From Torpedo marmorata (Eukaryota), in the NCBI GenBank assembly GCA_977017645.1, contig OZ360229.1, positions 103,850,001 to 103,914,000 of the forward strand: a stretch of 64,000 nt of DNA, given 5' to 3'. Under the pieces are notes generated by a model. That model was given only the letters and a program-made list of their open reading frames with translations, did no database searches and was not told the DNA's origin. Below are positions 1,620 to 50,751 of this stretch, one piece after another. A program made the position numbers and the translations under genes. Every line of letters begins with the position of its first letter. Within the stretch, counting starts at the first letter, position 1.

Positions 1620-1682
1620 TTTGGCAGGGGGGATGGGAATCAGAATGAGAATGCAGAGAGTAGGGTAGAAGAACACCTAGAT

Positions 1683-14438: not shown

Positions 14439-14461
14439 ATTTTATTGACTAAGTACTTCTG

Positions 14462-17400
14462 ATGGAAGGAGCACTACGGCCGGCTATCCTCGACCTCGAT
14501 CACCTAGCCCACGATGCCGGTAACGTCTTCGAACACTGGCTGCGATGTCTAGAATCGTTTATGGACACCATCGAAGCCGTAAGTGAAGCGCAACGATTGA
14601 AAGTCCTCATCTCCAGGGTGAGCTCTCGAGTGTACGTTACGATAAGAGACTGTGAAACCTACACGGGGGCTATGGATGCCCTGAGAGGAATCTACCTGTC
14701 GCCTGTCAACGGGGTCTACGCGCGATACCGGCTCTACTCCCGAATGCAGCGAGCAGGGGAATCGACCGTGGAATATGTCAGGGCCATACAGTCACTAGCA
14801 CGGGCGTGCAACTGTAAAGCCCTGACTGCTGAGGAACATTTGCGAGTGGTGGAGCGAGATGCGTTCATCATGGGGCTCAGGTCGGTATATGTGCGCCAGA
14901 GACTGCTAGAGCACGCCGACCTGGACTTTCGGGGGGCCGTAGCGATGGTCCGCACGTTGGAGACCGCGCAGCGGAACTCCGATGCCATGCAAGCTCGCGA
15001 CCCCCAGCCCGCAACGTGGTCAGCCCCATCTCCCAGCCCTGCGAACGAGATGACCGCCGCTGCCGCCATCCGTGCCGACCCGACCGCTACCGCGATCCTC
15101 ACCGCCGCTGCAGCCAGCCGCGAGCCCGAGAAGTGTTACTTCTGCGGGCTTGAGAAGCACCCGCGGAAGCGCTGCCCGGCCCGCGACGCAACTTGTTCCG
15201 GATGCGGCAGGAAAGGCCACTACGTGAAGGCCTGCCGCTCCAAGTCGCGCCCGGGTCTGAGCAGCGCCGCGTGCGAGCTGCGGGGGCAGCCATCTTACCT
15301 GAGGAGGCTTCCGGAGTCAGCCTCGTGCGAGCTGCGGGGGCAGCCATCTTACCTGCGGGAGCTTCCGGAATTGGCCTCATGCGAGCCGCGGGGGTGGCCA
15401 TCTTTGATGCTGGCACTTCCGGCGCCACCCGCGTCGGTACTTCCGGCCATACTACCGCCGCCATCTTACGGCAGCAGCAGCAGCGACACGTGCGAGCCAC
15501 GGGAGCGGCCATCTTTGTCGGCAGTAGAAGAAGATGAAGAATACATCGCAACTCTTGCCTCAGTCACCCTCGACCAGAACATCCCTCACCAGTTGTCGAG
15601 ATCCATGATGGACATTCTGGTGGAGGGACACAAAACCACCTGCCTCTTCGATACGGGCAGTACGGAGAGCTTCATCCACCCGGACACTGTCCAGCGCTGT
15701 GGCCTCACTACCATACCGGTAAGCCAGAGGGTGGCCATGGCGTCTGGGTCACACACAACAGACATCCGGGGGACTTGTGTGGCTGATATTGTTGTACAGG
15801 GGACTAAGTATAAACATTTTTCTTTATTTATAATGAATCGTTTGTGTGCACCCGTATTGTTGGGACTTGATTTTCAGAGCCACTTGCGCAGTGTTACTAT
15901 GCGGTACGATGGTCCCCACCCTGCGATCACTGTAGTCAACCACCAGTTCCATAATAATGAGCCCCAGACTACCTGTGGCCTCTCCACTCTTAAGATCTCG
16001 CCTCCGTCGTTATTCGCCAACCTGACCCCTGACTGTAAGCCTGTTGCAACCAAGAGCAGGCGATACAGTTCGGAGGACAGGGCGTTTATCAAGACGGAGG
16101 TACAGAGGTTGCTACAAGAGGGGATTATTGAAAGGAGCAATAGTCCCTGGAGGGCCCAGGTGGTTGTGGTAAAAGGGGCCAAGAGTAGGATGGTGGTGGA
16201 CTACAGTCAGACGATTAACCGGTTCACCCTGTTGGACGCATACCCGCTACCAAGAATTGCGGATATGGTTAATCAGATCGCTCAGTATAAGGTCTTTTCT
16301 ACGATTGACCTGAAGTCCGCGTACCATCAGCTCCCTATCCGTCGGGAGGACCGCCAGTACACTGCGTTCGAGGCTGACGGGAAACTGTTCCACTTCCTGC
16401 GGGTCCCGTTCGGGGTGACTAATGGTGTTTCTGTGTTCCAGCGGGAGATGAATAACATGGTAGAGGTATATAAACTTAAAGCCACCTTCCCGTATCTGGA
16501 CGATATCACCATCTGTGGGCTGGATCGCCAGGATCACGACACCAATCTCCGGAAGTTCCTGCAGGCGGCTAAAGCACTAAACCTAACATACAATAAAGAT
16601 AAATGTGTGTTCGGTACCACGCGCCTCGCTATTTTGGGGTACGTGGTAGAGAACGGGGTGATTGGGCCAGACCCCGATCGCATGCGCCCCCTACTGGAAC
16701 TTCCACTACCCTCCACCCCCAAAGCACTCAAGCGATGCCTCGGGTTCTTTTCATATTATGCACAATGGGTACCGAATTATGCAGATAAGGCCCGACCCCT
16801 GGTGAAATCCACCGTATTTCCCCTTGACTCGGAGGCACGTAAGGCTTTTGACCTTATAAAAGGGGACATTGCGCGAGCAACAATGCACGCGGTGGATGAG
16901 GAGATACCTTTCCAGGTAGAGAGTGACGCGTCGGACTTCGCGCTGGCTGCTACCCTCAACCAAGCGGGAAGGCCGGTGGCGTTTTTCTCGCGCACCCTTC
17001 AAGGCCCCGAAATTCGGCACTCCGCGGTAGAGAAAGAAGCCCAGGCCATCGTGGAAGCAATCAGGCACTGGAGGCACTATCTCGCCGGCAAGCATTTTAC
17101 CCTGCTGACCGACCAACGCTCGGTGGCATTTATGTTCAGCAACCAACAGCGGGGTAAGATCAAAAACGACAAGATCATGAGGTGGAGAATAGAACTCTCC
17201 ACCTATAACTACGACATCCTCTACCGGCCCGGGAAGCTCAATGAGCCCTCAGACGCTCTATCCCGGGGATCATGCGCCAGCGCGCAGATCGACCGATTAC
17301 ACGCCCTACAAGACCTCCTCTGTCACCCAGGAGTTACCAGGCTTTTTCACTTTGTGAAGGCACAGAACCTGCCATACTCCCTGGAGGAAGTCAGGACTTT

Positions 17401-18410
17401 GACCAGAGACTGTCAGGTTTGCGCAGAGTGCAAACCTCAGTTCTACCGCCCGGACAGGGCACAGCTGATCAAAGCCACGCGCCCCTTTGAACGTCTTAGT
17501 ATTGACTTCAAGGGGCCCCTTCCCTCCACGAACCGCAACGTGTACTTCCTAAACGTTGTTGACGAGTACTCGCGGTTCCCCTTTGCCATCCCCTGCCCCG
17601 ACACTTCAGCTACCTCAACCATAAAAGCTCTCCACCAGGTATTCGCGCTGTTTGGTTTCCCAAACTACATACATAGCGACCGGGGAGCAGCTTTTATGAG
17701 TGAGGAGCTGCGCAGGTACCTGCAGGACCGAGGCATCGCCACCAGCAGGACAACAGCATACAACCCCCGAGGAAATGGACAGGTGGAAAGGGAGAACGCT
17801 ACGGTGTGGAAGGCCGCGCTCCTAGCCCTTAAGTCAAAGGGCTGGCCGGTCTCCCGCTGGCAGGATGTTCTCCCCGAAGCCCTCCACTCTATCCCTACTA
17901 TGCACTTCCACCAACGCAACTCCTCATGAACGATTTTTTTCCTTCCCCAGGAAGTCGACCACCGGGACCTCCCTACCTGCCTGGCTTATGTCCCCGGGAC
18001 CAGTGCTGCTCCGCAACCACCTTCGGAGCAGCAAATATGAACCGACGGTTCAGAGGGTGCAGTTGGCGCACGCCAACCCCCAATATGCGTACGTGGTCTT
18101 CCCTGATGGACGAGAGGACACAGTCTCCATCCGAGACCTGGCGCCTGATGGGGCGCCAGAGGAGCATTCCGACGGGCAAGTCCACGTACTGCAAAACACA
18201 CCGCCACCCCTTCCTAACGCCCCACCCGATGTGTTAGACCCCGCCCCCTCAACGGGACCGCAAGCGTTCCGAGAGGCCAGGCAGGAGGCGACGGCACAGA
18301 CGAACCTACCACCTCCCCCATCACTAATATCTTCCCCAGCACCACAGCCCGACCCGACACTACGCAGGTCACAGCGGAAAATTCGGCCGCCGGATCGCCT
18401 GGACCTGTGA
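14462..18410 (+). CDS. gag-pol: Gypsy B Gag-Pol polyprotein; single ORF broken by one frameshift near 17890 in integrase
   Basis: The 1155-aa ORF has two CCHC-type knuckles (CYFC..H..C, CSGC..GH..C), protease LFDTGS, RT YLDD, RNase H SDAS and integrase IDFKG/HSDRG/VER. It continues in ORF 17865-18410 to PPDRLDL. Confidence 0.93.
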
Positions 18411-18756: not shown

Positions 18757-20243
18757 TGTCCCCTGTGCTGTATCTCCTGCTCTTGGTTGCCACGGGTTTA
18801 CAATCAGGGGTCAGATTGGGGAAGAGTGTTGGGGGTGGGATCTTGAGGGTGGATAGACCGCAAGTAGCGTGGTGTGACGAAATACATCTGCCGTTTTTAA
18901 GAAATTGGTGGTTACCGACAGTAATTGGTGGGACGGGCCCGTCATACTCCATAGTCACACTTTGGAGGTGACTCTGGAAGTCGAGCCCCAGTAGTACAGG
19001 GGCACACAGTCAGGACATGACCAATAGCGTGAAGTCCCGGTATTCAGTGTCCTGCACCACTAGCATCGCTACACAACCCCCCCGGATGTCTGTTGTGTGC
19101 GACCCGGAAGCCATGGCAACCCTCTGGCTTATCGGCTGTGTCTTGAGGCCGCATCACTGTACCGTGTCTTGGTGAATGAAGCTCTCTGTGCTGTCTGTGT
19201 CGAACAGGCAGTTTGTTCTGTGTCCCTTGACCAGGATGTCCATCATCGACCTCGCGAGTTGGTGGGGTGCACTCTGATCGAGTGTAACTGACGCCAACGT
19301 TGAGTCGCTGTCTTGATCCGACGCGATGGAGTGCCTGCCATTCCGGGATATCGGCACCCTGTGCCGGCGCGGTGGCGTGGAACAAAATGGCCGCTCCCAT
19401 GGCTCGCACGTGTTGGCCGCGGGTAAGTAAGATGGCGACGACGGAAGTGACGACACGCAAGATGGCCACCCCCATGTCTCGCACGCGGCGCTGCTCGATC
19501 CCGCTTGTGGTTTAGATCTACAGACCTTAGCGAAATGGCCTTTCTTCCTGCAACTGGAGCAGGTCGCTTCTCGGGCCGGGCAACGTTTCCGGGAGTGCTT
19601 TTCAAGTCCGCAGAAGTAGCATTTCTCGGATCGCGGCTGACGGCAGCTGTGGTCGATTCACCGGCGTGGTGTGGGGTCTGCAGTATCCACGGAGCCTGCG
19701 GGAGATTGCGTGCCTGTATAGCATCAGAGTTCTGTAGCGCGGCCTCCAGTGTATCGGCCAGCTTGTTCGCGGAACGGAAGATGAGGTCAGCTTGTTCCAG
19801 CAGCCGCTGGCGCACATACACTGACCTCGTCCCCATAACAAAAGCGTCTCTTACTAGGAGCTCTGCGTGTTGTTCGGCCGTCAGTCCCTGGCAGTCACAG
19901 GCCCGCACGAGTGTCTGTAGGGCCCGGACGAACTCTGCGCTCGACTCTCCGGGCCACTGCTGCCGCGTCGCTAGCCGGTGTCGCGCATATACAGTATTCA
20001 CAGGCCGTATATACTGCTTTTTAAGGGCATTCATAGCGTCTTCGTAAGTCTGCAGATCTCTGATCATGGAGTAGACTCGTGGGTTTACCCTAGAGAGGAG
20101 GACCTTGCGTTTTGCGGTGTCTTCTTGTACCTTGATCTCCTCCAGGAACGACTCAAAATAGGCTAGCCAGAGTTCAAAAGCATTGCCGGCCTCTGGTGTT
20201 TGTGGATCGAGGTCCAGTTTGTTTGGTCTCAAGACATTCTCAT
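18757..20243 (-). pseudogene. Gypsy A gag-protease, frameshifted
   Basis: ORFs 19243-20232, 19154-19456 and 18749-18958 are homologous to the N-terminal part of elements B and C. Confidence 0.9.
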
Positions 20244-20266
20244 TCTTACAATTTTGCCAATAAAAT

Positions 20267-20500
20267 TGATGAGCCCATCAATAACTCCAAAAGACTAGAA
20301 GTTACACTAGAAGTGAAAGCTTTTATTGGCAAAAGAATGGAGCTAAATCCGTGCTTATAATCTGTCCCGGTCTGGGGTAGGAGTGGTGGCACAATGGCCT
20401 TTATTCAGGGGGTCTGGGGAAGGAGCCACCGGGACAGTCAGCAGAGGGCACGTCCAGACATATCACCCATCCCACAACCTATACATAGTGGTTTACCACA
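20267..20500 (-). repeat. 5' LTR of Gypsy A
   Basis: Direct repeat of 11573-11807; gag starts immediately inside it. Confidence 0.93.
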
Positions 20501-20957: not shown

Positions 20958-22950
20958 CTCAATCATCTGTCGAGACTATGAAAAGATATTGAAATATTCC
21001 ATGTCTGAACTTTATCTCTTAAAATTGGACAACGTATTTCCGAGCCAAGATTAGAGGTCAGAGAAAGCTTCAGATTGCATCCAACTGCACCATAAGTAAT
21101 TTGAAGTGTTTTATATATTCCAAGCCACATCAATGAATCTCCTTCACTTTGAACACAAAAAAAATCATGAAGAAATATTTAAAAATAGTATTAATATGCT
21201 GACACTGGTTAAATACAAGTCAGAATATCAACCCAGATACAAATTAGTTGTATGTGGTTAATCCAAGCTGTTAGGTCAACTAATTAAATTGCTAGTGAAT
21301 AGCAGAATGTTATCATCAGCAGAATTAATTCTCTCCAACAAAACTGTGTTTCAGACCTCATGAACAAGGACGAATACCATGTTGGTATGTATGCTTATAT
21401 AATACAGGCCTTTGTTGATGGGTGGGCCAGGTGTCTTTCATTGTGAAGTCTAATTACTGGAATTCTTTGACTGCTAATGTTTATCTGTCCAGGGCACTTG
21501 CTGACTGAAAAAAACAAGTAACAACATCTGCAGATGTTACTGGGGCCAAGATCCTGTGTAAAACAGGCAGAGAATCTCAATGACGGTTACTAATGGTTAA
21601 AAAGAGGAAAAGGAGCAACACCTTTGACAAATTATGCCAACAGCAACCATACCCTAGTGGCAACAAGAGACTACTGAACACTGCAAAATGTTTGAACAAG
21701 GGCTTTTAAAATGAACAACAAACCAACTAACTCTTAATAGCTTATATTTTTATTTTCACTGCACCCCATGCATTCTTGCTCCACCTACTGAACACTGCAA
21801 AAGAACAAAATCCCTGGGTAACACAGGTCAAAAAGCATGTGCAGGAGAAACTAGTTATAATGGCCCACAAAATATATCCTATAAAGATTTCTTTAACCCT
21901 TCGATTACTGAAGCCAAAGTGGACAGCAATTTTGGATTTGAAGTCTGAATCACGGTGACTATTTATTGAGCATTTTTATACCACAATTACATCTGAATTT
22001 TTGCACATTATTATTAATCGCTATCAGTTTCAGATCAAACGCACTGCAATTAGTAAAAAACTGGAGCCTTCCATTCAGCAGTGAGCGCCTGTCACCATTT
22101 ACCCCAAAGAGGCCAGGCCACAAAGATTAACCAGCCTCTGAAGCATCAAGTTCCATGTACCCAATGCTGGCACATCCATTATAGGAGATGTGTGAAGTTC
22201 AATAATAGTGAAATCATCAAGAATGCCAATCAGATATGAACGTTTTCACAGAGCATAAGATAAGAAGTAAAAATCACTCCATTTTATAATCATAGTATAT
22301 TTTAAAAAATCAAGAATACGAGCCAGGATTTAGCTGGATTTTTCAGGACTAGAGAGGTTATTCAGTGGTATTTAGGGCTTCATACATTCTTAAACCTCAT
22401 TCATTGTGGCTTAAAGATTTTCAAAATAATAATTGAAAGTTACCATTAAAATTCATAACAATGCTTCTGAATCGACCAAATCCACAAAAGTTCGAACAAC
22501 ACACCAAACTTCATTTGCAGACAAGCCACGTGTCTGATTGCTACACTGTCCTGTTTAGTTATGCACGTATGTAGACACCATCTCTGTCATTTCACAATTT
22601 TACAATTGTAAATGACATGCCAATTTATGATTAATGATGAGAGCTCACTTAACTTCATGCAAACCTGACTATTGTAACAGATTAATTACCGAATATTTTG
22701 GCGAATAAGTCGACTCGCGGAAAAGTTGACCACCCTTTTTCAGCCTAATTTTAATGGTTTTATTGTATATCCGGTGTATAAGTCGACCCCCAAAAATTGC
22801 GATGCCTGAGATGCTGAGCGTTGACCGGCGTATAAGTCGACCCCCAAAAATCGCAATGATTGCGCTACTGGGCGTTGACCGGCGTATAGGTCGACCCACA
22901 ACGATCGTGCTGATTTAGCTGCTGGGCGTTGGCTGGAGGTGATTGTTATC

Positions 22951-24223
22951 ATGGAGGCTCAATTGAAACGACGAAAGTATGAGGCGAGTTTTAAATTAAA
23001 AGTGATAGAAATGGGCAAGAAAACCAACAACTGTGTTGCTGCAAGAAAATTTGATATATATGAGAAGTTGGTAAGAGATTGGAGGAAGAAAGAAGATATT
23101 TTAAGAAAAATACCAAAAAGGCAATGTTCGATGAGAAGAGGAATCACTCGTTGGCCAGAGTTGGAAAATCATGTTGCAGCATGGGTACGTGAACAGAGGC
23201 AAGATTGCTACATAGTCACCCAAAATAAAAGAACATTTGCACTGAAGTGGGCAAAGTCGCACCCAGAACTCAGTAATGATTTTGAAGCTACAGTAGGCTG
23301 GTGCAACCGTTTTATGAACAGGAAAAATCTGGTATTACGACAAAAAACAAAAATTGCTCAGAAACTACCAAAAGATCTTGATCATAAAGTTGTAAGTTTT
23401 CACCAGTTTATTTTACGTAACCGGCAGAAGCACCAGTTTGCATTGGCAAATATTGGAAACATGGACGAAACCCTCATGAATTTTGACATGATAGGCAATA
23501 GAACAGTGGAATGGAAAGGTGTGAAAACTGTGCAAACCAGGAGTACAGGCCATGAAAGGACCAGGTTTACTGTGCATGGCCGACGGGACAAAGTTAAGAC
23601 CCATGGTAATCTTCAAACGTAAATTTAAACCTAAAATAAAATTCCCTGCGGGTATTTTTGTACATTTTCATGAAAAAGGATGGATGGATGAAAATGGTGT
23701 AAGACTATGGATAGACAATGTGTGGAACAGGCGGCCAGGTGGTTTACGCAAGGAACGGAGTTTGCTGGTCTGGGATATGTTTCGTAGCCACTTAACTGAG
23801 AAGACTAAAAGTAGATTAGCACAACATAATACTTACATGGCGGTTATCCCGGGTGGTTTGACGTCTATATTGCAACCTCTCGATGTCTGCTTGAACAAGC
23901 CATTCAAAGACGATGTGCGTGAAGAGTGGAATACATGGATGTCGAGTGCATCGCTTGATGTGCTGTGTGACTTTGTGCTCAAGGCATGGGACAAAGTGAA
24001 AGTAGAGACTGTAATAAAATCGTTTAAAAAGTGCGGTATCTCTTGTGCAATTGATGGTACGGAAGATGATTTATTGTGGGACACTGACAACGAAGCTGAA
24101 GACGTCTCATCAGATACAGACTGGGACCCGTACGATGACTGTTTAAACAGTGAGACCCCGGATGTGCTTGCCGAGATCTTTGCCTCAGACGATGATAGCG
24201 AAAGTGATTTTGAAGGGTTCTAA
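22951..24223 (+). pseudogene. pogo transposase (Brinker-type DBD, CENP-B HTH, DD35D), frameshift near 23570
   Basis: RRKYEASFKLKVI..KLVRDWRK, WPELE..W, GWCNRFMNR, NMDET, VWD-35aa-LD(VCLNKPFK) and an acidic tail. Confidence 0.9.
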
Positions 24224-24288
24224 ATGTCTTGTTGTTTTTTTCAATAAAAATGTCAATGAAAATTTGTTGCAGTCGGTTTTTTTTTGGT

Positions 24289-24408
24289 TTTTCAAGGGTC
24301 GACTTATACGCCGAATCGGGTTTTCAAGGGTCGACTTATACGCCGAATCGTGTTTTCAAGGGTCGACTTATACGCCGAATCGGGTTTTCAAGGGTCGACT
24401 TATACGCC
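24289..24408. repeat. Subterminal 32-bp tandem repeat (about 3.7 copies) containing the TIR core gggtcgacttatacgcc
   Basis: Unit ttttcaagggtcgacttatacgccgaatcggg. Inverted cores also occur near 22772, 22826, 22880 and 24462. Confidence 0.9.
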
Positions 24409-25402
24409 AAATTGGCGTGGAGTGGTTTTTGAGCTGATTTTAAGGTCTCAAAAGTATATCGGGCGTATAAGTCGACCCCCGTTTTTGAGAGATTTTTGAG
24501 GGTTTCAAGACTCGACTTATACGCCGAAATATACGGTATATACAAAATTTCAGATGTTTGAGCAGCAGCAAATGATGTAATACCCCAGCCAATCATGGCA
24601 TGAAAATGCATAAGTTTGTGTGTTGCTGAAATTACAACTGGACTGCTTTTTTTGCCACCGAGCAGGTCAATTGCAATGTTTCCAAATCAAAGTTTACCAT
24701 TTTTATTGCCCACGTACTCTATTCCCTGTTAGGTTCTTGAATGCTTTTGCTGTATGTTTTCCTGAGTGTAGAAACATTCTTTAAAATTGCTAGGATTCCA
24801 TTTTGAAGAAGGCAAAAAAAAAATCCAGTTGTGAAATTGTTGCTGTCACATCTTTTTTACTTTTCAAAACAGCCTTCCAGAAGAAACCACATGCGCAGTA
24901 AATGATGAGCTTGGTAGAATCAATTTAATCCTGCAAAATTTCAAGTTTCTAACCCTTTTAATGACCCAGTAATATCAGAATCAGAATCAGAATTTATTGT
25001 CATGAACAAGTCATGAAATTCGGTGTTCTGCGGCAGCATCATAGTGCAAACATTCATATTATTACCATCTTACGACATTACTATAATAAAATATACATGA
25101 TAGTGCACGAAATGTAAGGCAGTGTCTTTGGTTCATTGATTATTCAGGAATCTGATGGCAGCGGGGAAGAAGCTATCCTTGTGCTGTTGAGTGCTTGACT
25201 TTAGGCTCCTGTACCTTTATCCCGATGGTAGCAGAGTGAAGAGGGCATGGCCTGGGTGGTGGGGGTCTTTGATGACAGAAGCTGCTTTTTTAGGACACCG
25301 TCTCGTGTAGATGTCCTCGATGGAGTGAAGTCTGGTGCCTGTGATGTCATAGGCCGAGTTAACAACCCCCTGGAGTTTATTCTTGTCCTGAGAGTTGGCG
25401 CC

Positions 25403-26079
25403 TGTAAGAGCCATAGGCTCACTACCTACCTTCTGTTTTGGCCACGGGCGCCAGCGGTGTCCCGGGGTCCGTAGGCCTCTTCCGTAGGCCGCACCAGCGC
25501 GAGCGCCGCCACCGCTTACGGAGCTGGAGCATGCGTGGTTAGCCAGCGGCGGTGGCTTCGGCTGGGGCCGGCGTATCCATCAGTGCGCATGCGCACTGAT
25601 GGACTGGGTCGACGCGTGCGCGGTTGTCTCGGCCCCGGTGGCGAGCGGTTGGAGCCGGGGCCAGCGCGTGTAGCCACGGAGCATGCGCGGGTGGGATCTT
25701 CTTTTAAAGAGGTTCCCCCGCGCGAGTCGGCAGTTGAAAACCTGAGGAGGGTGAGTTAGATGTCGACAATCTCTGTCGACCGTTTAATACTTTTGGAAAT
25801 CGTTTTATACTTTTGGAAATCGTTTAATACTTTTGGAAATCGTTTAATACTTTTGGAACACTTTTTATAACCTTTTTACATTGTTTTATATCCTTTTACA
25901 TTATTTTACATCATTTCAAGAAATGTTTATATTAAAGTCTGAAGATTACTGCAAGTCTAATGTAAATAAAGGTTTTTTGAACATTTTGGACTTTGTTGGT
26001 AAATGAATGAAAACGCGTCGCAGACAAACATCTAACTTAGCCTCCAAGCGACTATTTTTTATTGGACGAAGTCGCTACA
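25403..26079 (+). repeat. 5' LTR of the BEL/Pao element
   Basis: CpG-rich 5' half, TATA-like ttttaaa at 25702, and four copies of a 20-bp unit cgtttaatacttttggaaat at 25781-25859. Confidence 0.95.
25576..25603. promoter_or_regulatory. Perfect 28-bp palindrome centred on an NRF1 consensus in the LTR U3
   Basis: tccatcagTGCGCATGCGCActgatgga; the 3' LTR copy has one mismatch. Confidence 0.5.
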
Positions 26080-26486
26080 TTAAGTCGACAGAGAATTTGT
26101 TGAACTAAGTCGACAGAGATTCGGTCACTGAAACGGAAAATAGGATAGGAAGGAGAAGCCAGGAGGGTCAGTGAGGTTTCCAGATACATAAGGACCACAC
26201 TTAGCCTCCAGGTGACCAACGTTGGATCGAAGTCACCGCAATCTACGTAGTCAATAGAGAGCTGGCTGTTTGGAACAGAAAATAGAAGGAAAGAAGATAA
26301 AAAAACTCGTTTGTGGATTGCAGCACATTACAGTCAGTTGAAGTGGTTGGCATAAGTCTGTGGACTCCTTCTGTGTATCTTTAGTAAGTAAGAACACAGA
26401 TTGGAATTGCTGCCGCTGGTCCATTGGGGACTGTTGTTTGGCTGGTATTGTGTATGCTTGAAGGAAAGAGGAACTAGACGAGTAAA

Positions 26487-29400
26487 ATGGCCGCAGCAGC
26501 CACTGATACAGCAGCTACTGATATATCAGCAGCTGGCGCAGCAACCGCTGATGTTGCTGTTGAGGACCGACGTATTGAAGACATGAAGGTTACGGATATT
26601 AAAGAAGAATTGAAGCGACTGAAAAAGGACATAAGAGGAAATAAAAGGGTTCTTATCGAAAGATTGAAGCAGGCAAAGGATGAAGAGGCAGCTTCATTAA
26701 ATGAACAAGAAGATAACTTGGAAATGGCTGAAATTGTGTCAACAAATGATGAAGGAATTAAAGTGGTTGAAGATTCAAAGGATATACAATTTGAATTGAA
26801 TAAAGAGGTAAGTATGAAGACAGCATATGAACTGCAGGACGAAATACAAGCAAGTGACAGTGTCTCAATTGCTGAAAGCAGGAGAAGCAAAAGAAGTTCT
26901 GGTTCGAGCTCCAGAGTTTCTCGCACTTCAAATTATACATCGTCACGTACAAATGTTGATGTTAAATTGGCCGCTCTTCTTGCACAACAAAAAATGCTTA
27001 AGGATAAATATATTTTGGAAGAAGAGGAGGAGCAGCTAAGACAAAAGGAGAAGCAGCTAATGGAGCAGCTAAGACAAGAGAAGGAGCAACTAAGGCAGAG
27101 AAAAGAACAGCAGGAGCTAGAAGCAAACATTGCTATTTCCAAGGCAGAAAAGAAAGCAATAGAAGGCTCGATGGTATCTGGTGCTAGCAGTAAATTATCT
27201 AAATTGTCTGATAATAAAAGGTCATATTTAAAAAAGGAGTCACAGGAAAAGAAACCAACCAAAAGGATAGATATTTTAGAACCAAGGATACAAAACTTAC
27301 ATATACAAGGACAAACCTTTCAAGGGCATATTGGTATCGAGTCACATGTACCAATAGTAACATCTGAAGACAAGGCTGCGGCTTGGGTTCGGTCGAACGA
27401 AGCAGCTTCTTTGTTATATGAGACAAGAATCAGAAATATGGAAGAAACTACACCAGTGAGGTTTCCAGATACATTGCATGCAACAAGAGACAGTGAACAG
27501 AGCAATGTATTGACATCCAAGGAAAGACAAAATGAAATTGCTGCATCATTGTTTCAGTTACAGTCTCTCTCTTCTTTACCCAAAAAGGAGATACAAACCT
27601 TTGATGGTGATCCACTTCAATATCAATCATTTATGAGATCTTTCAAACGCAATATTGAATATAAATGTCAAGGTCGTGATGAATGTCTTTATTATTTGGA
27701 AATGTTTACAAAGGGACATCCAAAAGAACTGGTAAAGAGTTGTAAACAAATGTCTTCAGAAAGAGGATTAGACAAAGCTAAGGCTTTACTGGAACAATAT
27801 TTTGGCAACAAGCATCGAATTGCTTTAGCTTATATGGATAAAGCTCTTAATTGGACATCAATAAAACAAAATGATGTAAAGGCTCTGCAAGAATATACTC
27901 TGTTTTTAAGAGGATGTTGTAATGCTATGGAAGAAATCGATAATATTCGTGAGCTTGAAGTGCATAGTAATATGCGAATCATCTTAGAAAAATTATCTTA
28001 CAAGTTATGGGATAGATGGAGAAATTTGGCTTGTGATTTACAAGTAGATTACGGTCGAAAGAGTACCTTAAAGGATTTGGTAAATTTTCTTGAACGACGG
28101 GTGTACGTTGAAACAGATCCACTATATGGAAATGCCAGAGATAATTCAATGGGCAAAGATGTAAAGAAGTCTAACACACAGTCTAGTCCGAAAGTAAAAA
28201 GGAGTACCTTTGCTACTAATGTGCAAGTTATAAGTAAAGAAAAGGACAAAGTAAATAAGGAAAAGGAAAGTTTGCCTGATGAAAAGAGTTGTTTGTTCTG
28301 TAAAGGTGGACATGCTTTGGAAATGTGTTTACGATTGGAAAAGAAGGAACATAAGGAAAAGATCGCTTTCTTAAAGGAAAATGGAATATGTTTTAGCTGT
28401 TTGTGTAAAGGACACATCAGTAAAAACTGCGAGAAGCGAATTAATTGTAACATATGCAATTTGAAACATCCTAGAATTTTGCATATCCATAACAGAAACA
28501 AGGAATTGGGAAAAGAGCAAACAGAAACAAAGGAAACAACAGAAAATAATGTTATAACCTCGGTTCAGACAAGTGGTCTTACTGGGGCCGGAATGAATAA
28601 CTGCAAACTTTCAATAGTGCCTGTACAAGTCAAGGCCAAGAAAGGGGATGTAATAGTTAAAACATATGCATTTTTAGATCCAGTCAGCACTGCTTCCTTT
28701 TGCACGGAAGGACTAATGATTAAACTTAATATTCAAGGAAAAAGATCAAAAATTATGTTAAGAACAATGGGACAAGAAAAGGTTGTTGAAACTAACATTG
28801 TTTCAGGCTTAGAGGTTGCTGGATTGGATGACAAAAAAATTTGTGATCTTCTAAGTGTATATACTCAGAAGACTATGCCTGTGAATGAAGGAAATATTCC
28901 TCATCAAAGGGATATCCATCATTTAGCTTATCTGTGGAAGGTTTATTTACCTGAGATTAATTCTGAGATAGAAATGCTGATTGGTTCAGATGTGCCAAAG
29001 GTTTTGGAACCGAAAGAAGTAATAGAGAGTAAAAGGAATGGACCTTACGCTATTAGAACCAAGTTTGGTTGGACAATCAATGGACCACTGGAAAGAAATA
29101 ATGATATTGCTCAGGAACAGTTGGCGATAAATATTAATAGAATTTCGGTTGAGAAAGTTGAAGAGTTAAGCGAAGAGCAAAAAACTGTGAATAAGAAAAT
29201 CACTTTTGAAGAAAAGAAAACAGATCAATGTGAAAATAAATCAATGGTATTTAAAACAACATTGAAGGAATTAATTTCGTCAGAAATGGATGAAAGTGAA
29301 GTATTAGAAAATGTTGCAAATAATACTATTGATCATTCATGTGTAATTGAATCCAATACAGGAATAAAACAAGTGACTGAAAACAAATCTGAATGTAGAT

Positions 29401-30203
29401 TTTGTAATTCAGAGAATACAACAGACAAAGCTAACGAAGAAAGATTACAACGTGATGTAAAACTGGAAAACACAGAAAACTGTACTGATGGAATAAAGAA
29501 TATTGCGAATGATAATTTAATGCAATTGAATTCAGAGAACAAAATGTTGAAAGGGGAATTGGAAATATTAGATAATCAAGAAAACAGTAAACAGAAAGAT
29601 TTAATTGTAAGTAAAACTCGCAAAGTCAGAAAGCGGAAGAAAAGAATAACTGCTGAAGAAATGAATACAGTTATCGAGGAAAGAGATTTAGCATTATCAA
29701 AATGTAAAAGGTTGGAGGAAGAGATTAATGTTTTGAAAGAGAACAAGTTATTGGTTAATAACACAAAACAATTAACAATGCAGAAAGAATGTGATATTGC
29801 ATTGCAGAAATATAACAAACAAGACGAAGAAATTAAAAAATTTCAAGTTTGCCGCAACAGGATTGACAATGGAAATATCAATGTAGCACATGATATTTTG
29901 ACTTCAGATCAAAGTATTAATTTCTCGAAAAGAACTGAGACCGAATTGAAAGTTGCAAAATTGGATTTAGAATTGCAGGAAAGAGCCATAGAAACCAGAG
30001 TGGTTAAACAGACCTGTTTAAAATCGAAAGGATCAGATAAATATTCAAATTCTAGTTCTAAGAGTTTAAATTCTTCACATGAGAAGTGGAATACTGAAAA
30101 AAGAAATAAAGTGAAACGACATGTTGAAGAAGTGCCTTGTGTTAAATTCAAAAGAAAAACTGTATCTATTTTATCTGAGGAAGATTTGAAGTTTACTGGT
30201 TAA
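26487..30203 (+). CDS. 1238-aa chimeric polyprotein: SAP domain, BEL/Pao Gag (three Zn knuckles), aspartic protease-like domain, coiled-coil tail with MIPOL1-like segments
   Basis: The ORF is uninterrupted. SAP-like IEDMKVTDIKEELKR...GNKRVLIERLKQA; Gag LPKKEIQTFDGDPLQY..F; knuckles CLFC..H..C, CFSC..GH..C and CNIC..KH..LH; protease TYAFLDPVS..LIGSD..RTKFGWTINGP; tail RITAEEMNTVIEERDLALSKCKRLEEE. Confidence 0.85.
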   Translation: MAAAATDTAATDISAAGAATADVAVEDRRIEDMKVTDIKEELKRLKKDIRGNKRVLIERLKQAKDEEAASLNEQEDNLEMAEIVSTNDEGIKVVEDSKDIQFELNKEVSMKTAYELQDEIQASDSVSIAESRRSKRSSGSSSRVSRTSNYTSSRTNVDVKLAALLAQQKMLKDKYILEEEEEQLRQKEKQLMEQLRQEKEQLRQRKEQQELEANIAISKAEKKAIEGSMVSGASSKLSKLSDNKRSYLKKESQEKKPTKRIDILEPRIQNLHIQGQTFQGHIGIESHVPIVTSEDKAAAWVRSNEAASLLYETRIRNMEETTPVRFPDTLHATRDSEQSNVLTSKERQNEIAASLFQLQSLSSLPKKEIQTFDGDPLQYQSFMRSFKRNIEYKCQGRDECLYYLEMFTKGHPKELVKSCKQMSSERGLDKAKALLEQYFGNKHRIALAYMDKALNWTSIKQNDVKALQEYTLFLRGCCNAMEEIDNIRELEVHSNMRIILEKLSYKLWDRWRNLACDLQVDYGRKSTLKDLVNFLERRVYVETDPLYGNARDNSMGKDVKKSNTQSSPKVKRSTFATNVQVISKEKDKVNKEKESLPDEKSCLFCKGGHALEMCLRLEKKEHKEKIAFLKENGICFSCLCKGHISKNCEKRINCNICNLKHPRILHIHNRNKELGKEQTETKETTENNVITSVQTSGLTGAGMNNCKLSIVPVQVKAKKGDVIVKTYAFLDPVSTASFCTEGLMIKLNIQGKRSKIMLRTMGQEKVVETNIVSGLEVAGLDDKKICDLLSVYTQKTMPVNEGNIPHQRDIHHLAYLWKVYLPEINSEIEMLIGSDVPKVLEPKEVIESKRNGPYAIRTKFGWTINGPLERNNDIAQEQLAININRISVEKVEELSEEQKTVNKKITFEEKKTDQCENKSMVFKTTLKELISSEMDESEVLENVANNTIDHSCVIESNTGIKQVTENKSECRFCNSENTTDKANEERLQRDVKLENTENCTDGIKNIANDNLMQLNSENKMLKGELEILDNQENSKQKDLIVSKTRKVRKRKKRITAEEMNTVIEERDLALSKCKRLEEEINVLKENKLLVNNTKQLTMQKECDIALQKYNKQDEEIKKFQVCRNRIDNGNINVAHDILTSDQSINFSKRTETELKVAKLDLELQERAIETRVVKQTCLKSKGSDKYSNSSSKSLNSSHEKWNTEKRNKVKRHVEEVPCVKFKRKTVSILSEEDLKFTG

Positions 30204-30242
30204 CGTTTTAACTCGAAGATTATAGAGATAAAAGAACTTTGG

Positions 30243-30353
30243 AGAGACATTGTGATTATTATGGATAATTCGACTTCAAGAAACTCCTGGTTACTTGGAA
30301 AAATTATTGAGACTTTTCAAGACAAAGGAGGAACTTTGATAAATGTAAACTAA
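30243..30353 (+). pseudogene. Remnant of the BEL/Pao integrase C-terminal domain (DUF5641-like)
   Basis: Translates RDIVIIMDNSTSRNSWLLGKIIETFQDKGG, matching the GD.V......PR..W.LG.I...FPD..G pattern. Confidence 0.75.
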
Positions 30354-30546
30354 CTTTATTTGTTGTTGTATATTTCAGGTTACAGAGTTTTGTTCATCCA
30401 GAGTTATGGTAAACTCTGGTCTTGTGAAGAAAGAAGAAAGGATTTGTATATTTGTTCGAATGTTATATGGTTATTGTTATTATAATGTTATAGTTATGTA
30501 ATTATTATTAGAGATGTTACATCTCATTATAATAATTAGGGGCCGG

Positions 30547-31233
30547 TGTAAGAGCCATAGGCTCACTACCTACCTTCTGTTTTGGCCACGGGCGCCAGCG
30601 GTGTCCCGGGGTCCGTAGGCCTCTTCCGTAGGCCGCACCAGCGCGAGCGCCGCCACCGCTTACGGAGCTGGAGTGTGGCGGCGCATGCGTGGTTAGCCAG
30701 CGGCGGCGGCTTCGGCTGGGGCCGGCGTATCCATCAGTGTGCATGCGCACTGATGGACTGGGTCATTGCGTGCGCGGTTGTCTCGGCCCCGGCGGCGAGC
30801 GGTTGGAGCCGGGGCCAGCGCGTGTAGCCACGGAGCATGCGCGGGTGGGATCTTCTTTTAAAGAGGTTCCCCCGCGCGAGTCGGCAGTTGAAAACCTGAG
30901 GAGGGTGAGTTAGATGTCGACAATCTCTGTCGACCGTTTAATACTTTTGGAAATCGTTTTATACTTTTGGAAATCGTTTAATACTTTTGGAAATCGTTTA
31001 ATACTTTTGGAACACTTTTTATAACCTTTTTACATTGTTTTATATCCTTTTACATTATTTTACATCATTTCAAGAAATGTTTATATTAAAGTCTGAAGAT
31101 TACTGCAAGTCTAATGTAAATAAAGGTTTTTTGAACATTTTGGACTTTGTTGGTAAATGAATGAAAACGCGTCGCAGACAAACATCTAACTTAGCCTCCA
31201 AGCGACTATTTTTTATTGGACGAAGTCGCTACA
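30547..31233 (+). repeat. 3' LTR of the BEL/Pao element
   Basis: Direct repeat of 25403-26079. Confidence 0.95.
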
Positions 31234-34076
31234 GCGCCTCCATACCAGGCAGTGATGCAACCAGCCAGAATGCTCTCCACGGTACACCTGTAGATGTTTA
31301 CAAGAGTCTTCGGTGACATACCGAATCTTCTCAGACACCTCACAAAGTATAGCCGCTGATGAGCCTTCTTTGTGATTTCATCAACGAGGAGGCTCCAGGA
31401 CAGATCCTCGGAGATGTTGACACCCAGGAATTTGAAGTTCTTGACCCTCTCCACTACTGAGCCCTCGATGAGGACTGGGTCGTGTTCCCCTGACTTCCTC
31501 CTGAAGTCCACAATCATCTCCTTGGTTTTGCTGACATTGAGCGCAAGGTTGTTGTCGTTACACTATTCAACGAGCTGATCTATCTCCCTCCTATATGCTT
31601 CCTCATTGCCGTTTGTGATTCTGCCGACAACTGTGGTGCCATCGGCAAACTTGTAGATGGCATTGGAATTATGCCTGGCCACACAGTCATGGGTGTATAA
31701 CGAGTAGAGCAGTGGGCTAAGCACGCATCCTAGGGGTGCGCCTGTGTTGATAATCAGTGAGGAGGAGACGTTGTTTCCAATTCATACTGACTGTGGTCTT
31801 CCGATGAGAAAGTCAAGGATCCAGTTGCAGAGGGGGGTACAGAGGCCTAAAGGTTGTAGCTTCTTGACCAGCACTGAGGGAATAATGGTATTGAAGTTGA
31901 TGACGAGCAGCCGTATGTATGAGTTGCTGTTTTCGAGGTGATCCAGAGCTGAGTGGAGAGCCAGTGATATTGCATCTTCTGTGGAGCGATTGTGACGATA
32001 GGCGAATTGCAGTGGGTCCATACCTTTGCTTAGGTACATGTTAATTCTGGCCATGACCAGCCTCTCAAAGCATTTCATCACAGTAGAAGTTAGTGCAGCT
32101 GGACGGTAGTCGTTGAGGCAGCTCACACTACTCGTCTTTGGTACCGGGATGATTGATACCCTTTAGAAGCAGGTGGGAACCTCTGACTGCTGCATATAAT
32201 ATAACCTCTAATTTCACAAAAAAAATATATAGACAGAGGTTTTGACATAGCTAACCATTCCAAGTATGATAAATGAGCATTAATGATAAAAATATGACTG
32301 AGCCATGAAAGAAGTGAAGATTTAGGCAGAGTCAGAGGAAAGAGCAGTGGAGGCAGGAATGCTTGCAGAGAATTCTACTGTTTAATGTCTGGGGTCACTG
32401 AGAGTAGAACAATTATGGTCGAAGATAGAGTGAAAGGAACACAAGGATCCTGGTGCTGGAGGATGAAGCAGGTTTACATCTGAAGGTGATCAGCTTCTCC
32501 TAAGATCCTCTAAAATACAAGAACTTCCATACCAAAAGATTCTATCATACGATCATGAAATCAGGAGCAAAAGAGACCATTCAACTCATTAGATTTTACC
32601 CAGATCTTCCAATGCACAACCCATCCACATCACTCACTCTGCCATTCCCCTATATCACTATAATTTCTTTCTTATTCATTATAGCGCTTCACACAATGAA
32701 GGTGAACAGTATAATATGACAGAACTGCTGTCAGTTGTGTAAAAGATTTTTGAGTAAGAAATGAGTGTCGGAATGATAAAAGAATTCATCAACAAGACCT
32801 TTAGGACAGTCATCGTCAAGGATGGATGCAAGCCTTGTTTGTTTAGCTATTAAAATCAGCTTGCTCAATTTACATTTTTCAATGAACAATGAAATATTCA
32901 TTTGTAAAAAACTATAAACATTATCAATTGAAATAAGAATGACGGTTTTAGGGATTTGATGTGCGCAAAAGAAAATTTTGAGCAATCTAGTTCAAAAATA
33001 TTTTGTTTATTGGCTGGAACTGATGGCAGCGGTTTGCTAACTGCTGATATAAACTGATGTTGTAAGCATTGCGAAATGATCACCAAATAAACAGCCTACA
33101 TCTAAAAACAAAAAGAAAATAATGCCTTTCCTCTCCATTGGCTCTACACAGTTTGTAACCACAGGAATTTCCTGAATGTGTTTGGAGACTGAAAATCTGA
33201 AATTGACTCTGTGGAGAATGGGAAGCAGTGAAGCACACATCATTGTATTTCCCTGTATATTACAAAAAGTTAAAGACATCAGCTGAAGCTGACCAACCTC
33301 CTGTGCCACAACAATCAAAATGGCCAAACAAAAGCAATAAATAACTCTTTTGGAAAACATTTAAAATGAATTGTAATTAAACTGAACATCGGGTCTCAAA
33401 CATCCCTGCAAGAGGTTCTGTAAACAAAACTGGATACAAGTACACAACATTTACAATCATCTACAATATATTACATAAACAATAGAACTTCGATTGTAAC
33501 TATCTGCCAAAGTCATACGAATAATATCAAACAATAGACCAATTTCTGCCTTTACCAATTCCAAGATTGAATTTTAAAAATGAAGTCTTTCAACATTGGA
33601 ATTAGCCCTGCAATGAAACAGTTTATTTTCAGTTCAAATCAGTCTGTAATCATATTGCCTGTTCCAACTCAACACTAATTGTCACTAAATCATCAATGAT
33701 CTATCTCTTCACGAGATCAAGGATGGCTGGCATATCAAATGGAATAATCTCACATAGGTTAGTCAAGGCATAATGTTAAGGAAAAAATTTGGAAGGTGTT
33801 TGATATTGGTTGAATGAAGAGGGCTCACAGAATTATATTTACCGTATTTGACGGCATATAAGACCCCCCTTTTTTCCCCAAAATATCACCTCAAAAACCA
33901 TCCCGGGTCTTATATGCGAAGGTGACATTTTGGTGCCGCCATTTTGGTGCCGCCATTTTGGGCACTGAGTGTAGTCCAGGAAGCGGGCCCGCAGCTTCGC
34001 GGACCATCTTCCCTTGGGTGGCCCGTACTTTCCGGAGTCGCTGCTGCCGCCGCTCACTTCCCCCAGAAAGAAGGCT

Positions 34077-37531: not shown

Positions 37532-38977
37532 TGTTACAAATTCAAACCAGCAACGACAGAAGACACAATGCAAAAGGGGTCAAATTGAAATTTATATTTG
37601 TTAAAGACAATTAAAGATATAATTTCATAACAATTAACTCCANNNNNNNNNNNNNNNNNNNNNNNNNNNNNNNNNNNNNNNNNNNNNNNNNNNNNNNNNN
37701 NNNNNNNNNNNNNNNNNNNNNNNNNNNNNNNNNNNNNNNNNNNNNNNNNNNNNNNNNNNNNNNNNNNNNNNNNNNNNNNNNNNNNNNNNCCCTCATGTAA
37801 AAATGGAAAATCTTCCCCAAAACTCCCAGGTCAGTCATAAAAATAAGTCAGTCCCAAAAATACAGTCCACAAAAATCACTCTCTATGTTCAGGGTCCAAA
37901 TTCAGCTCTGTGCGCTGGCATGAAGGACTTCTTAATGAACGTTGGAGAGAGAGACAATGACTGTTTAAGCTTATGAATTCTTGGCCTGCTTTCCTTCCCT
38001 GAAGACTTTCCCTTTTGGTAGGTGCACGAGGATTGCGATTCCAAAATTAGTATACCACTGATTGAGGCGTATACTTGGATCTCACAGCCTGTCTCGCTGA
38101 TCTCACGCCTGTTCTCCATGAAAGTTGCTTTATCTCAGGAGTTTGCTGATACAGGAGGCCATGTGCTATTCTTCCAGCTTTTTTCACTGGAATGCACAAG
38201 CCTCTGGTTTTGCTGTGTTGTCCCAGCCTTTTGCAACTCCAAACTCGATGCTTTTTGCAGAGATTTGCACCTGCTTTTGCAAAAGTGCAACAAAGTATCT
38301 TTCCACCGCCTGTCTCTCTCTCTCTGTCTCTCTCTCCCCAAAACCACCAGGTCAGTCATAAAAATAAGTCAGTCCCAAAAATACAGTCCACAAAAATTAT
38401 TCTCGATGTTCAGGGTCCAAATTCAGCTCTGTGCGCTGGCATGAAGGACTTCTTAATGAACGTTGGAGAGAGAGACAATGACTGTTTAAGCTTACGAATG
38501 CTTGTCCTGCTTTCCTTCCCTGATGACTTTCCATTTTGGTAGGTGCACGAGGATTGCGATTCCAAAATCAGTATACCACTGATTGAGGCGTATACTTGGA
38601 TCTCACAGCCTGTCTCACTGATCTCACGCCTGTTCTCCACGAAAGTTGCTTTATCTCAGGATTTTGCTGATACAGGAGGCCATGTGCTATTCTCCCAGCC
38701 TTTTTTACTGGAATGCACAAGCTTCTGGTTTTACTGTGTTGTTCCAGCCTTTTGCAACTCCAAACTTGATGCTTTTTGCAGAGATTTGCACCTGCTTTTG
38801 CAAAAGTGCAACAAAGTATCTTTCCACAGCCTGTCTCTCTCTCTGTCTCTCTCTCTGAGCACACCCAGTCCTGGGCAAGTTAACTCTTTCAGTACCTGGT
38901 CCCAGTCTGTATTGCAAAATACTTCATCCTTCCTGCTGACCGTCCACAGTCCAAATGGTCAGTCATGGTCCGTAACA
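37532..38977 (-). mobile_element. Solo LTR (same family as 4299-5167) with a 521-bp internal tandem duplication; spans the assembly gap
   Basis: TGTTA...TAACA with TSD ATAG (37528-37531 and 38978-38981). Repeat units are 37815-38335 and 38336-38856. Confidence 0.9.
37643..37789. other. Assembly gap (147 N)
   Basis: Run of N covering the position of the (CA)n tract seen in the sister LTR. Confidence 0.99.
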
Positions 38978-49200: not shown

Positions 49201-50751
49201 ATGATAAAATCCTGAGGTGGAGAATCGAACTCTCCACCTACAACTACAATATAATGTACCGGCCCGGGAAGCTCAATGAGCCCTCCGATGCTCTATCCCG
49301 GGGGATGTGCGCTAGCGCACAGATCGACCGGTTATATGCCCTCCACTGTGACCTCTGCCACCCCGGAGTCACCCGGCTTTTTCACTTTGTGAAAGCCCGT
49401 AATTTACCGTACTCCCTGGAAGAGGTCAGGACAATGACCAGCAGCTGCCAAATCTGCGCGGAGTGCAAACCGCACTTCTACCGTCCTGACAAGGCACAGT
49501 TGATAAAAGCAACCTGCCCATTTGAGCGACTAAGCGTCGAATTTAAGGGCCCCCTTCCCTCCACCGACCGCAATGTGTTCTTCCTCAACGTTATTGATGA
49601 GTACTCGCGGTTCCCTTTCGCCATTCCCTGCCCCGATACCACTACCACCTCAGTCATAAAGGCCCTCCGCAAACTCTTCACATTGTTTGGATACCCCTGC
49701 TATATCCATAGCGACCGAGGGTCCTCGTTTATGAGTGACGAGCTGCGACAATACCTGCTGGCCAAGGGTATCGCGACTAGCAGGACCACGAGCTATAACC
49801 CACGGGGTAATGTACAAGTGGAGAGGGAGAATGCCACGGTCTGGAAAGCCACACTCTTAGCCCTCAGGTCTAAGGGATAACAGTCTCCCGCTGGCAAGAA
49901 GTCCTTCCCGAGGCACTCCACTACATCCGATCCCTGCTATGTACGTCCACCAATGCTACACCTCATGAGAGACTCTTTTCCTTCCCCAGGAAGTCGACCA
50001 CCGGGACTACCCTACCAGCATGGCTGACGTTTTTCAAGGCCAGTGCTGCTCCGGAAACATGTCAGGAGCAACAAATACGCCCCGATGGTCGAGAGGGTCC
50101 AATTAGTACACGCGAACCCCCAGTACGCCTACGTGGTTTTTCGTGATGGGCGGGAAGACACAGTCTCCATCCGGGACCTGGCGCCCGCAGGAGCACTGGG
50201 ACCCGCCACTGCCCTCGAACACTCCGTAGTTACTGTTACCCCCTTACCTACCATTAAGGACACATAAGAGGCACCAACCAATTCAAACATGACACCAAAC
50301 GTACTGGCATATTCATCCGAGGTTTCGCGATCGCCAGACGTGCCGGTACCCCAGATCAGGCAGGAGGCAGCACCGCCACCTGCCCCATCACCACAAGTAC
50401 TGCGCCGATCACAGCAGCGGACTCGACCGCCTGATCGACTCGATTTGTAATTTTAATTCTTTGTAAATATTGTTATACCCTTCACCCCGCTGGACTCTTT
50501 TAAAAAGGAGGGGTGAATGTGGTAAACCACTATGTATGGGTTGTGGGCTGGGTGATAGGTCTGGACATGCCCCTGCTGACTGTCCCGGTGGCTCCTCCCA
50601 CAGACCCCCTGAATAAAGGCCATTGTGCCACTGCTCCTCCCCCAGTCCGGGACAGATCACCAGCACGAATGTAGCTCCATTCTTTTGTCAATAAAAGCCT
50701 TTCAGTTCTTGTGTAACTTCTAGTCTTTTGGAGTTATTGATGGGCTCATCA
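46281..50751 (+). mobile_element. Gypsy LTR retrotransposon C (same family as A), full length
   Basis: The 234-bp LTRs 46281-46514 and 50518-50751 have 4 mismatches. The TSD is CCTAT (46276-46280 and 50752-50756), and a PPT precedes 50518. Confidence 0.97.
46538..50450 (+). pseudogene. gag-pol: Gypsy C gag-pol with frameshifts (G8 run at 47784-47791; near 49880; near 50030) and a late stop
   Basis: ORFs 46538-47926, 47748-49880 and 50043-50267 carry LFDTGS, YLDN, HPG..CQIC, IHSDRG and PPDRLDL. Confidence 0.92.

Follow-up and report, generated by a model that had tools for sequence, protein, structure and literature searches.

A high-copy, Pol-less BEL/Pao family of Torpedo marmorata with an in-frame mosaic of BRCA1, MIPOL1 and Elongin A sequence

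How does a retrotransposon that lacks a polymerase come to carry some 1 kb of non-BEL sequence in one open frame with its own Gag, and what keeps that frame open? The question is raised by an element of the BEL/Pao type at positions 25403-31233 of a window (the whole stretch of DNA analysed, 64,000 nt) of the Torpedo marmorata genome (6.2 Gb). An earlier note, made from the sequence alone, had described paired, closely similar long terminal repeats (LTRs) and a GCGCC target site duplication (TSD) inside a long interspersed nuclear element (LINE), and these were confirmed: the LTRs, of 677 and 687 nt, differed by 6 mismatches and 10 gap columns, and a second LINE copy in the window had both element flanks contiguous at 92-93% identity, with a 5-nt overlap equal to the TSD. 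The single open reading frame (ORF) was also as described, with a coding part at 26487-30200 (1238 amino acids, aa) free of internal stops. A Pfam search of the element detected only SAP and DUF1759, and no reverse transcriptase (RT), RNase H or integrase, in agreement with the reported loss of these core domains; the single protease-RT-RNase H-integrase ORF that marks autonomous BEL/Pao elements was thus absent. The integrase C-terminal remnant noted after the stop was located at about 30244-30332, with 89-93% identity to autonomous copies. No env-sized ORF was found in this element or in its helper (see below). The window element is accordingly filed as a non-autonomous BEL/Pao derivative and not as an autonomous member.

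The in-frame non-BEL sequence was present as claimed but proved more extensive, running from about 29180 to about 30219 and taking in the terminal SEEDLKF and the stop codon. This cargo is a mosaic of intronless host RNA from three genes, BRCA1, MIPOL1 and Elongin A (Table 1). Thus, aa 897-1038 matched BRCA1 (49% identity over 158 aa with a ray protein, 42% with a shark protein), and aa 1040-1178 matched MIPOL1 in two pieces placed in reversed order. SEEDLKF, previously likened to the S.ED..F block of BEL elements, belongs in fact to the Elongin A part, which matches the host exon at 84% identity in DNA; the true block, EYSKEDKQF, follows the protease in the helper and is absent from the window element, so that the earlier reading was rejected. 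In an older copy (L073), four BRCA1, five Elongin A and one MIPOL1 exons of the genome were recovered at 90-96% identity with their introns gone, and the window copy showed 71-84% identity to the same host exons. The removal of introns (across the four BRCA1 and five Elongin A exons of the older copy) and the replacement of part of the element ORF are both features of LTR-mediated retrocopies. The donor Elongin A locus was placed at C41:39.0 Mb; a second, intron-split Elongin A-like locus lies at C25:175318134-175337048. Candidate microsimilarity was seen at the two joints covered, as CAAAA at the old RT-BRCA1 joint and as CAGCAA at the young protease-BRCA1 joint. No chimeric protein from other species was detected among 4 + 4 matches and the best 150 of 735; none of these 150 reached the Gag-protease, and the 10 that overlapped two segments likely reflect alignment run-on.

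The window element is one of about 11,000 copies, which rules out a chance arrangement. A 24-mer spanning the protease-BRCA1 junction gave 11,003 genome matches (at most one mismatch), and a helper RT 24-mer, common to 12 of the 14 autonomous loci fetched, gave 1,473, with no matches for the reversed-pattern control of either. The chimeric family therefore outnumbers the helper 7.5 to 1, as a ratio of k-mer counts and not of curated copy numbers; were every copy counted by k-mer full length, it would account for about 1% of the genome. In a DNA search with the cargo, all 40 of the 40 loci scored were at least 99% identical. Two samples of copies were analysed, namely, the 39 best copies and the first 40 junction matches listed on contig C1, the latter unselected for cargo identity. 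Among the 39 best copies, LTR pair divergence ranged from 0 to 6.4%, and the TSDs were perfect 5-bp repeats in 19 (18 different words), imperfect in 1 and uncalled by the script in 19. Such numerous copies with TSDs are a mark of secondary retroposition in LTR-mediated retrocopies.

An autonomous partner sharing LTR ends, as had been anticipated, was found in L053, which is 93% identical over element positions 1-3778, LTR included (its LTRs show 81-85% identity to those of the window element). Nine further autonomous loci had Gag-protease regions 87-95% identical but other LTR types; against the autonomous copies in the genome, the Gag-protease identity was 89-93%. Most of the unselected chimeric copies bear these other LTR types, and LTRs have therefore likely been exchanged with several helper subfamilies. 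The non-autonomous lineage with captured in-frame cargo proposed in the earlier note was thus recovered together with its helper. An extra ORF in L015, considered as a possible pol, proved to be an inserted LINE (L015:5066-6531). Contigs from four sequencing runs cover the chimeric stretch, and one of 930 nt, from organism B, spans the protease-BRCA1-MIPOL1 joints; carry-over of a very-high-copy repeat is possible, and these contigs were not used for range or expression.

A genome search with MIPOL1 retrieved many loci in which aa 340-470 are directly followed by aa 210-300, at 70-85% identity. Thirteen of them were fetched together with the host exon, and they belong to an older BEL family. 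It numbers at least 448 copies, matches the host exons at 90-96% identity and has LTR pairs 81-92% identical where both survive. Its layout is Gag-protease, an RT piece in some copies, BRCA1, MIPOL1, MIPOL1 and Elongin A, in one frame save for private breaks, and PF06881 was found in it. In one old copy (L069:8836-9945), 405 nt of the MIPOL1 part are duplicated in tandem, and L083 has a 579-nt insertion. Between young and older chimeric copies, synonymous divergence (dS) was 0.25 in the cargo, 0.90-0.95 in the capsid and 0.57-0.68 in the protease, while the capsid dS between young chimeric and young autonomous copies was 0.03-0.17. Given a low cargo dS against a high capsid dS, the cargo has likely moved onto a different BEL Gag-protease chassis; gradual replacement of the Gag-protease by repeated recombination would give an equal picture. 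The old joint follows the RT motif PETERAK, whereas the young joint comes directly after the protease and coincides with the 6-nt word CAGCAA, which is in frame in both helper and cargo. The 3' end was replaced too, by the integrase end of the young helper.

The suggestion that the frame was kept open by selection held for the frame, while constraint on the amino acids of the cargo was weak. All seven deletion blocks that separate the old from the young cargo (24, 120, 45, 81, 198, 3 and 111 nt; parts of two of them are still polymorphic) are multiples of three, for which (1/3)^7 = 5e-4. Over 281 cargo codons with 138 base changes, no stop was seen against 8.6 expected (P 8e-5). These changes were strongly A/T biased, 94 of the 138 being G>A, C>T or C>A, and the A content rose from 37% to 45% since the old family. 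On the same long branch, 25 synonymous changes were observed against 24 expected and 88 nonsynonymous against 86, an N/S ratio 0.98 times the neutral expectation. Indels shared among young copies were in frame or compensated, with three exceptions (two that occur in a single pair of near-identical copies, and one within an A-run), whereas private indels were in frame in only 15 of 91. An ORF of at least 1,270 codons was kept in just 3 of the 40 unselected copies; copies therefore decay after insertion, and selection would act during replication and not on host loci.

We consider it probable, though well short of certain, that this is a Pol-less family with a mosaic of three host RNAs, mobilised by its helper and keeping its tail as a translated spacer. 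Co-packaging of host RNAs in BEL particles (among them, likely, a circular RNA of MIPOL1) would have allowed their addition by RT template switches, along the lines of the capture model in the accessible text of PMC5131818. Capture would have occurred in an older BEL lineage, at first just past the RT region, and would have been followed by in-frame trimming of the cargo, by its transfer to the present BEL lineage through recombination at CAGCAA just after the protease, and by repeated LTR exchange with helper subfamilies. The chimeric element would itself supply Gag and protease and package its RNA, with Pol borrowed from the helper; RT and integrase would likely come from the co-assembling autonomous partner. 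The least certain step is the retention of the tail as a translated spacer replacing Pol. The selected trait would be translation to near the normal stop, for RNA stability or particle assembly, and not any function of BRCA1, MIPOL1 or Elongin A.

Several points weigh against this account. Among the 40 unselected copies, the cargo dN/dS ratio (nonsynonymous to synonymous, w) was 0.98 for singletons but 0.42 for variants present in at least 3 copies (Fisher p 0.005; p 0.03 without CpG sites; significance lost with a threshold of 5 copies), a hint that the tail is more than a spacer; the latter value is close to the w of 0.51 of the Gag-protease. Stops among shared and singleton variants (1/71 and 17/239, respectively) gave p 0.085, not significant alone. 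A stop at aa 1117, on an A/T run, occurs in 5 of the 79 copies and in at least two separate clades, about three of the carriers being related, and a shortened tail may thus be replicating. The host MIPOL1 exons at the BRCA1-MIPOL1 and MIPOL1-Elongin A joints were not located; ORF expression, the MIPOL1 circle and a part for RNA surveillance are predicted. For the dN/dS between copies, then, the outcome was neutrality on the long branch and modest constraint among recent subfamilies, and recent purifying selection on the cargo is weak. The BRCA1 part gave a host-versus-copy w of 0.6 in both rows, which were usable; the all-exon rows were dropped because the exon alignments overran.

With the same origin, the tail could by now be a working particle domain, in which the MIPOL1 coiled coil and a basic patch, RKVRKRKKR (a candidate nuclear-import signal), give an edge over the helper. 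The shared variants in the MIPOL1 and Elongin A parts, with w of 0.25-0.33, point in this direction, as do the patch itself, which arose from host RKARERKKR and is identical in 23 of the 40 unselected copies, and the 7.5-fold excess of chimeric copies. A compensated +1/-1 shift ten codons before the stop (30150-30175) preserves LSEEDLKFTG in 32-34 of the 79 copies; about 10 unselected copies have no terminal stop here. Long helices with predicted local distance difference test (pLDDT) values of 70-88 in places were modelled for the tail, but the single-sequence model was of low confidence (mean pLDDT 56, predicted template modelling score 0.21). The neutral N/S of the long branch, the heavy deletion of motifs of host origin (the Pfam domain of Elongin A among them) and the aa 1117 stop in some related copies all argue against a function of the tail, and we regard it as the main alternative, though a doubtful one. 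Only tentatively could one go as far as to propose that a BEL/Pao particle copied a circular RNA and two mRNAs into a coding tail which survived a lineage jump and gained a particle role through the coiled coil and the nuclear-import patch, so that a parasite without Pol came to exceed its helper 7 to 1 and to occupy about 1% of the genome.

As to the source of the MIPOL1 piece, its two parts meet at a back-splice junction, which is eroded but alignable in the window copy and exact in older copies. With a slash marking the splice site, the host exon for aa 436-468 ends in ...TACTACAG/GTAAG at C40:64,385,712 (the sole exact match of 3), and the exon beginning near aa 210 reads ...GTAATAG/CAGGGCTG at C40:64,591,881, which places it between the exon for aa 25-209 (64.64 Mb) and the donor exon; the three exons share the minus strand. 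In the cargo, the sequence is TACTACAG/CAGGGCTG, so that the donor of a downstream exon meets an acceptor 206 kb upstream in MIPOL1. This joined 23-mer was carried by 448 loci. Since both splice sites are of phase 2, the reading frame holds across the back-splice. A noncolinear exon-exon junction at splice sites, the defining mark of circular RNA (circRNA)-derived retrocopies in the accessible text of PMC4897178, is thus present, and the captured sequence is confined to aa about 352-468 and about 210-300, between BRCA1 and Elongin A, as expected of circle-resident exons with no poly(A). The piece is therefore likely of circular RNA origin. At the DNA level, a linear RNA with repeated exons would be indistinguishable from a circle, the captured part amounts to less than one turn of the circle, and other routes are named in the same text of PMC4897178; on these grounds, two other sources were considered, namely, a linear transcript in which exons are repeated or trans-spliced, and a pair of separate template switches. 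Both ends lie exactly at canonical splice sites with matching phase, an outcome not favoured by template switching; no MIPOL1 sequence from outside aa 210-468 was captured; and of 12 matches to the acceptor pattern, only one was a host site, the others resembling cargo copies, with none downstream of the donor in the gene region. These alternatives thus appear quite improbable. A literature search for 'circMIPOL1' gave no match.

BRCA1, MIPOL1 and Elongin A are essential genes, which counts for a benefit of the cargo at the RNA level, as camouflage in which host-like sequence dampens small-RNA silencing. Camouflage of this kind has been proposed for plant gene-capturing elements (accessible text of PMC13317346). 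It is very improbable here, as it leaves the conservation of the frame unexplained and as the young, successful family has drifted to 71-84% host identity while the host-like old family is rarer. A neutral passenger with a frame left open by chance, or a host-domesticated gene, is hardly credible: the window copy was indeed noticed because it is intact, but the frame statistics rest on family-shared changes, decay after insertion is neutral (singleton w 0.98, 17 singleton stops), and very few unselected copies keep the long ORF.

The Gag-protease part of the ORF is that of a BEL/Pao element. DUF1759 was matched at aa 372-512 with 24.8 bits, slightly below the Pfam cut-off of 25.4. In a structure model of aa 348-898 built from 80 sequences (mean pLDDT 80), the capsid resembled PNMA2 (Z 8.5) and the Copia capsid (Z 8.2) and the protease resembled retropepsins (Z 8.2-8.7), all middling Z values, and a Foldseek search with this model gave no match under E 0.001. 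The Cys-His boxes read CX2CX3HX4C, CX2CX4HX4C and CX2CX3HX4H, in accordance with the triple box defined for BEL/Pao Gag in the accessible text of PMC554778. Homologous elements carry PF05380; thus, L046 has PF05380, RVT_1, rve and DUF5641. In the Gag N-terminal region, a Q/E/K/R-rich tandem repeat (27020-27110) varies in unit number and is in frame in all intact copies. The BEL/Pao protease motifs LD.G and, later, LIG are present in the family as LDPGS and LIGSD. The LDPV of the window copy, from which an uncleaved polyprotein had been proposed, does exist, but LDPGS was read in 70 of the 74 copies with the motif, the other 4 having private variants and none LDPV (5 further copies lack the motif), and 12 autonomous loci also read LDPGS. 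An uncleaved polyprotein is untenable as a family trait because LDPV is a private change.

The N-terminal SAP domain, taken previously for a second host-like capture, was not acquired by the chimeric family, since it is already present in the autonomous helper and, at the Gag N terminus, in numerous BEL families of the genome that have diverged (first-look candidates: 29,045). No host SAP donor was found among the 20 loci fetched of 150 scored; 18 of the 20 were BEL leaders, and the other 2, presumably host genes to judge from their motifs, had no DNA match. Searches for its source in Atlas and PDB gave only generic SAP, and SAP in BEL Gag is possibly an older capture.

Table 1. Features of the BEL/Pao element and of its insertion site in the window
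Feature	Position	Strand	Remarks
5' TSD	25398..25402	.	GCGCC, inside minus-strand LINE
5' LTR	25403..26079	+	677 nt, TG...CA
Primer-binding position	26084..26094	+	complementary to LTR 25770-25780; possible self-priming
Single ORF	26487..30203	+	1238 aa plus stop; SAP-Gag-protease-host mosaic
SAP domain	26574..26675	+	aa 30-63; Pfam; also in autonomous and older BEL families of genome
Capsid domain, DUF1759	27576..28133	+	about aa 364-549; Pfam and structure model
Triple Cys-His nucleocapsid	28290..28484	+	aa 602-666; motif
Retropepsin-like protease	28599..29063	+	about aa 705-859; LDPV at 28674-28685, family LDPG; motif and model
BRCA1-derived	29178..29597	+	aa 898-1037 (Pristis BRCA1 aa 201-357); host exon junction without intron
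MIPOL1-derived, downstream exons	29597..29857	+	remnant of aa about 352-468, ending at host splice donor
Back-splice junction	29857..29858	+	downstream donor joined to upstream acceptor; alignable here despite erosion; exact match in older copies
MIPOL1-derived, upstream exons	29858..30008	+	remnant of aa about 210-290, starting at host splice acceptor
Elongin A-derived	30009..30219	+	includes SEEDLKFTG and stop codon 30201-30203
Integrase C-terminal remnant	30244..30350	+	past stop; derived from young autonomous family
Purine-rich tract	30526..30546	+	precedes 3' LTR
3' LTR	30547..31233	+	687 nt
3' TSD	31234..31238	.	GCGCC

Complementarity of 11-15 nt between the primer-binding position and an LTR motif co-varies across copies and in the old family (the window element, L003, L102, L105 and L074), which suggests tRNA-independent self-priming as in Tf1/sushi. 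No report of self-priming in BEL/Pao was found in the literature searched, which left out most subscription journals and supplements. The leader (26190-26260) holds what is left of another LTR type, namely, its 3' end and primer site; in the majority of helper and chimeric copies, this stretch forms the true end of the LTR. Elsewhere in the window, Gypsy-like LTR elements were located at 14453-17929 (+), 12443-14156 (-), 19154-20277 (-) and 46487-49880 (+), one with an open Gag-Pol frame of 1158 aa. Fragments at 22879-24528, which we take to be of a Pogo/Tigger-like transposase, are followed by 32-bp tandem repeats. The sole run of N (147, at 37643-37789) lies outside the element.

LTR-mediated retrocopies in animals (Tan et al. 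2016, accessible text of PMC5131818) are similar in that partial spliced mRNAs replace part of the element ORF, in sense and often in frame, several parental genes may be combined, and the products can be transposed again as non-autonomous elements; one mosquito case has a flanking BEL element. The present family differs in its roughly 11,000 copies, above the helper number, in the movement of its cargo between BEL lineages, in the long-term selection on its frame and in its back-spliced segment, 'circ' not occurring in the accessible part of that text. Maize Bs1 is likewise a non-autonomous LTR element with three host gene pieces in a hybrid ORF, but it has 1-5 copies and one piece out of frame (accessible texts of PMC5131818 and PMC13317346); in the present family, every piece keeps the host frame and is fused to a full Gag-protease of an animal BEL/Pao element. 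The circRNA-derived pseudogenes, such as that of mouse circRFWD2 (Dong et al. 2016, accessible text of PMC4897178), share the noncolinear junction at splice sites, the absence of poly(A) and an LTR nearby; they number 33-42, and their mechanism was termed mysterious. In the present family, by contrast, the junction lies within a complete LTR element and in a coding frame, and the helper family is identified. The autonomous fish BEL/Pao elements represented by 108 database homologues have a Gag-protease at most 51% identical, with the triple Cys-His box and DUF1759, but they possess RT, RNase H and integrase, and neither the cargo nor the SAP segment was matched by any of the 108.

In acutely transforming, helper-dependent retroviruses, Gag is fused in frame to captured cellular sequence that replaces pol. 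The likeness is one of analogy only, the present family being a germline retrotransposon with no env, three donors and no sign of retained donor function. Each ingredient thus has a precedent, be it multigene LTR capture, circRNA retrocopies near LTRs or helper-dependent gag fusions. The largest BEL/Pao family in a survey of 62 genomes had 397 copies (accessible text of PMC3118150). No report of the chimeric family was found in the literature searched, which left out most subscription journals, Repbase and supplements, and neither an in-frame back-splice junction in an LTR element, nor inter-lineage transfer, nor amplification beyond 397 copies was found in literature or protein searches, although the supplements of PMC5131818 and PMC4897178 may hold closer parallels.

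The finding provides, within a single genome, a dated series of LTR machinery making coding sequence, from host exons through at least 448 old copies to about 11,000 young, remodelled ones, a copy number far above both the 397 of that survey and the 1-5 of Bs1. A back-splice inside a complete LTR element bears on the retrotransposition of circRNAs, left open in the accessible text of PMC4897178. The thousands of copies permit a direct test of selfish selection for an open frame against new protein function. Finally, with fragments of BRCA1, MIPOL1 and Elongin A present in their thousands, gene annotation may be led astray, and small RNAs directed at the three donors could arise from them.

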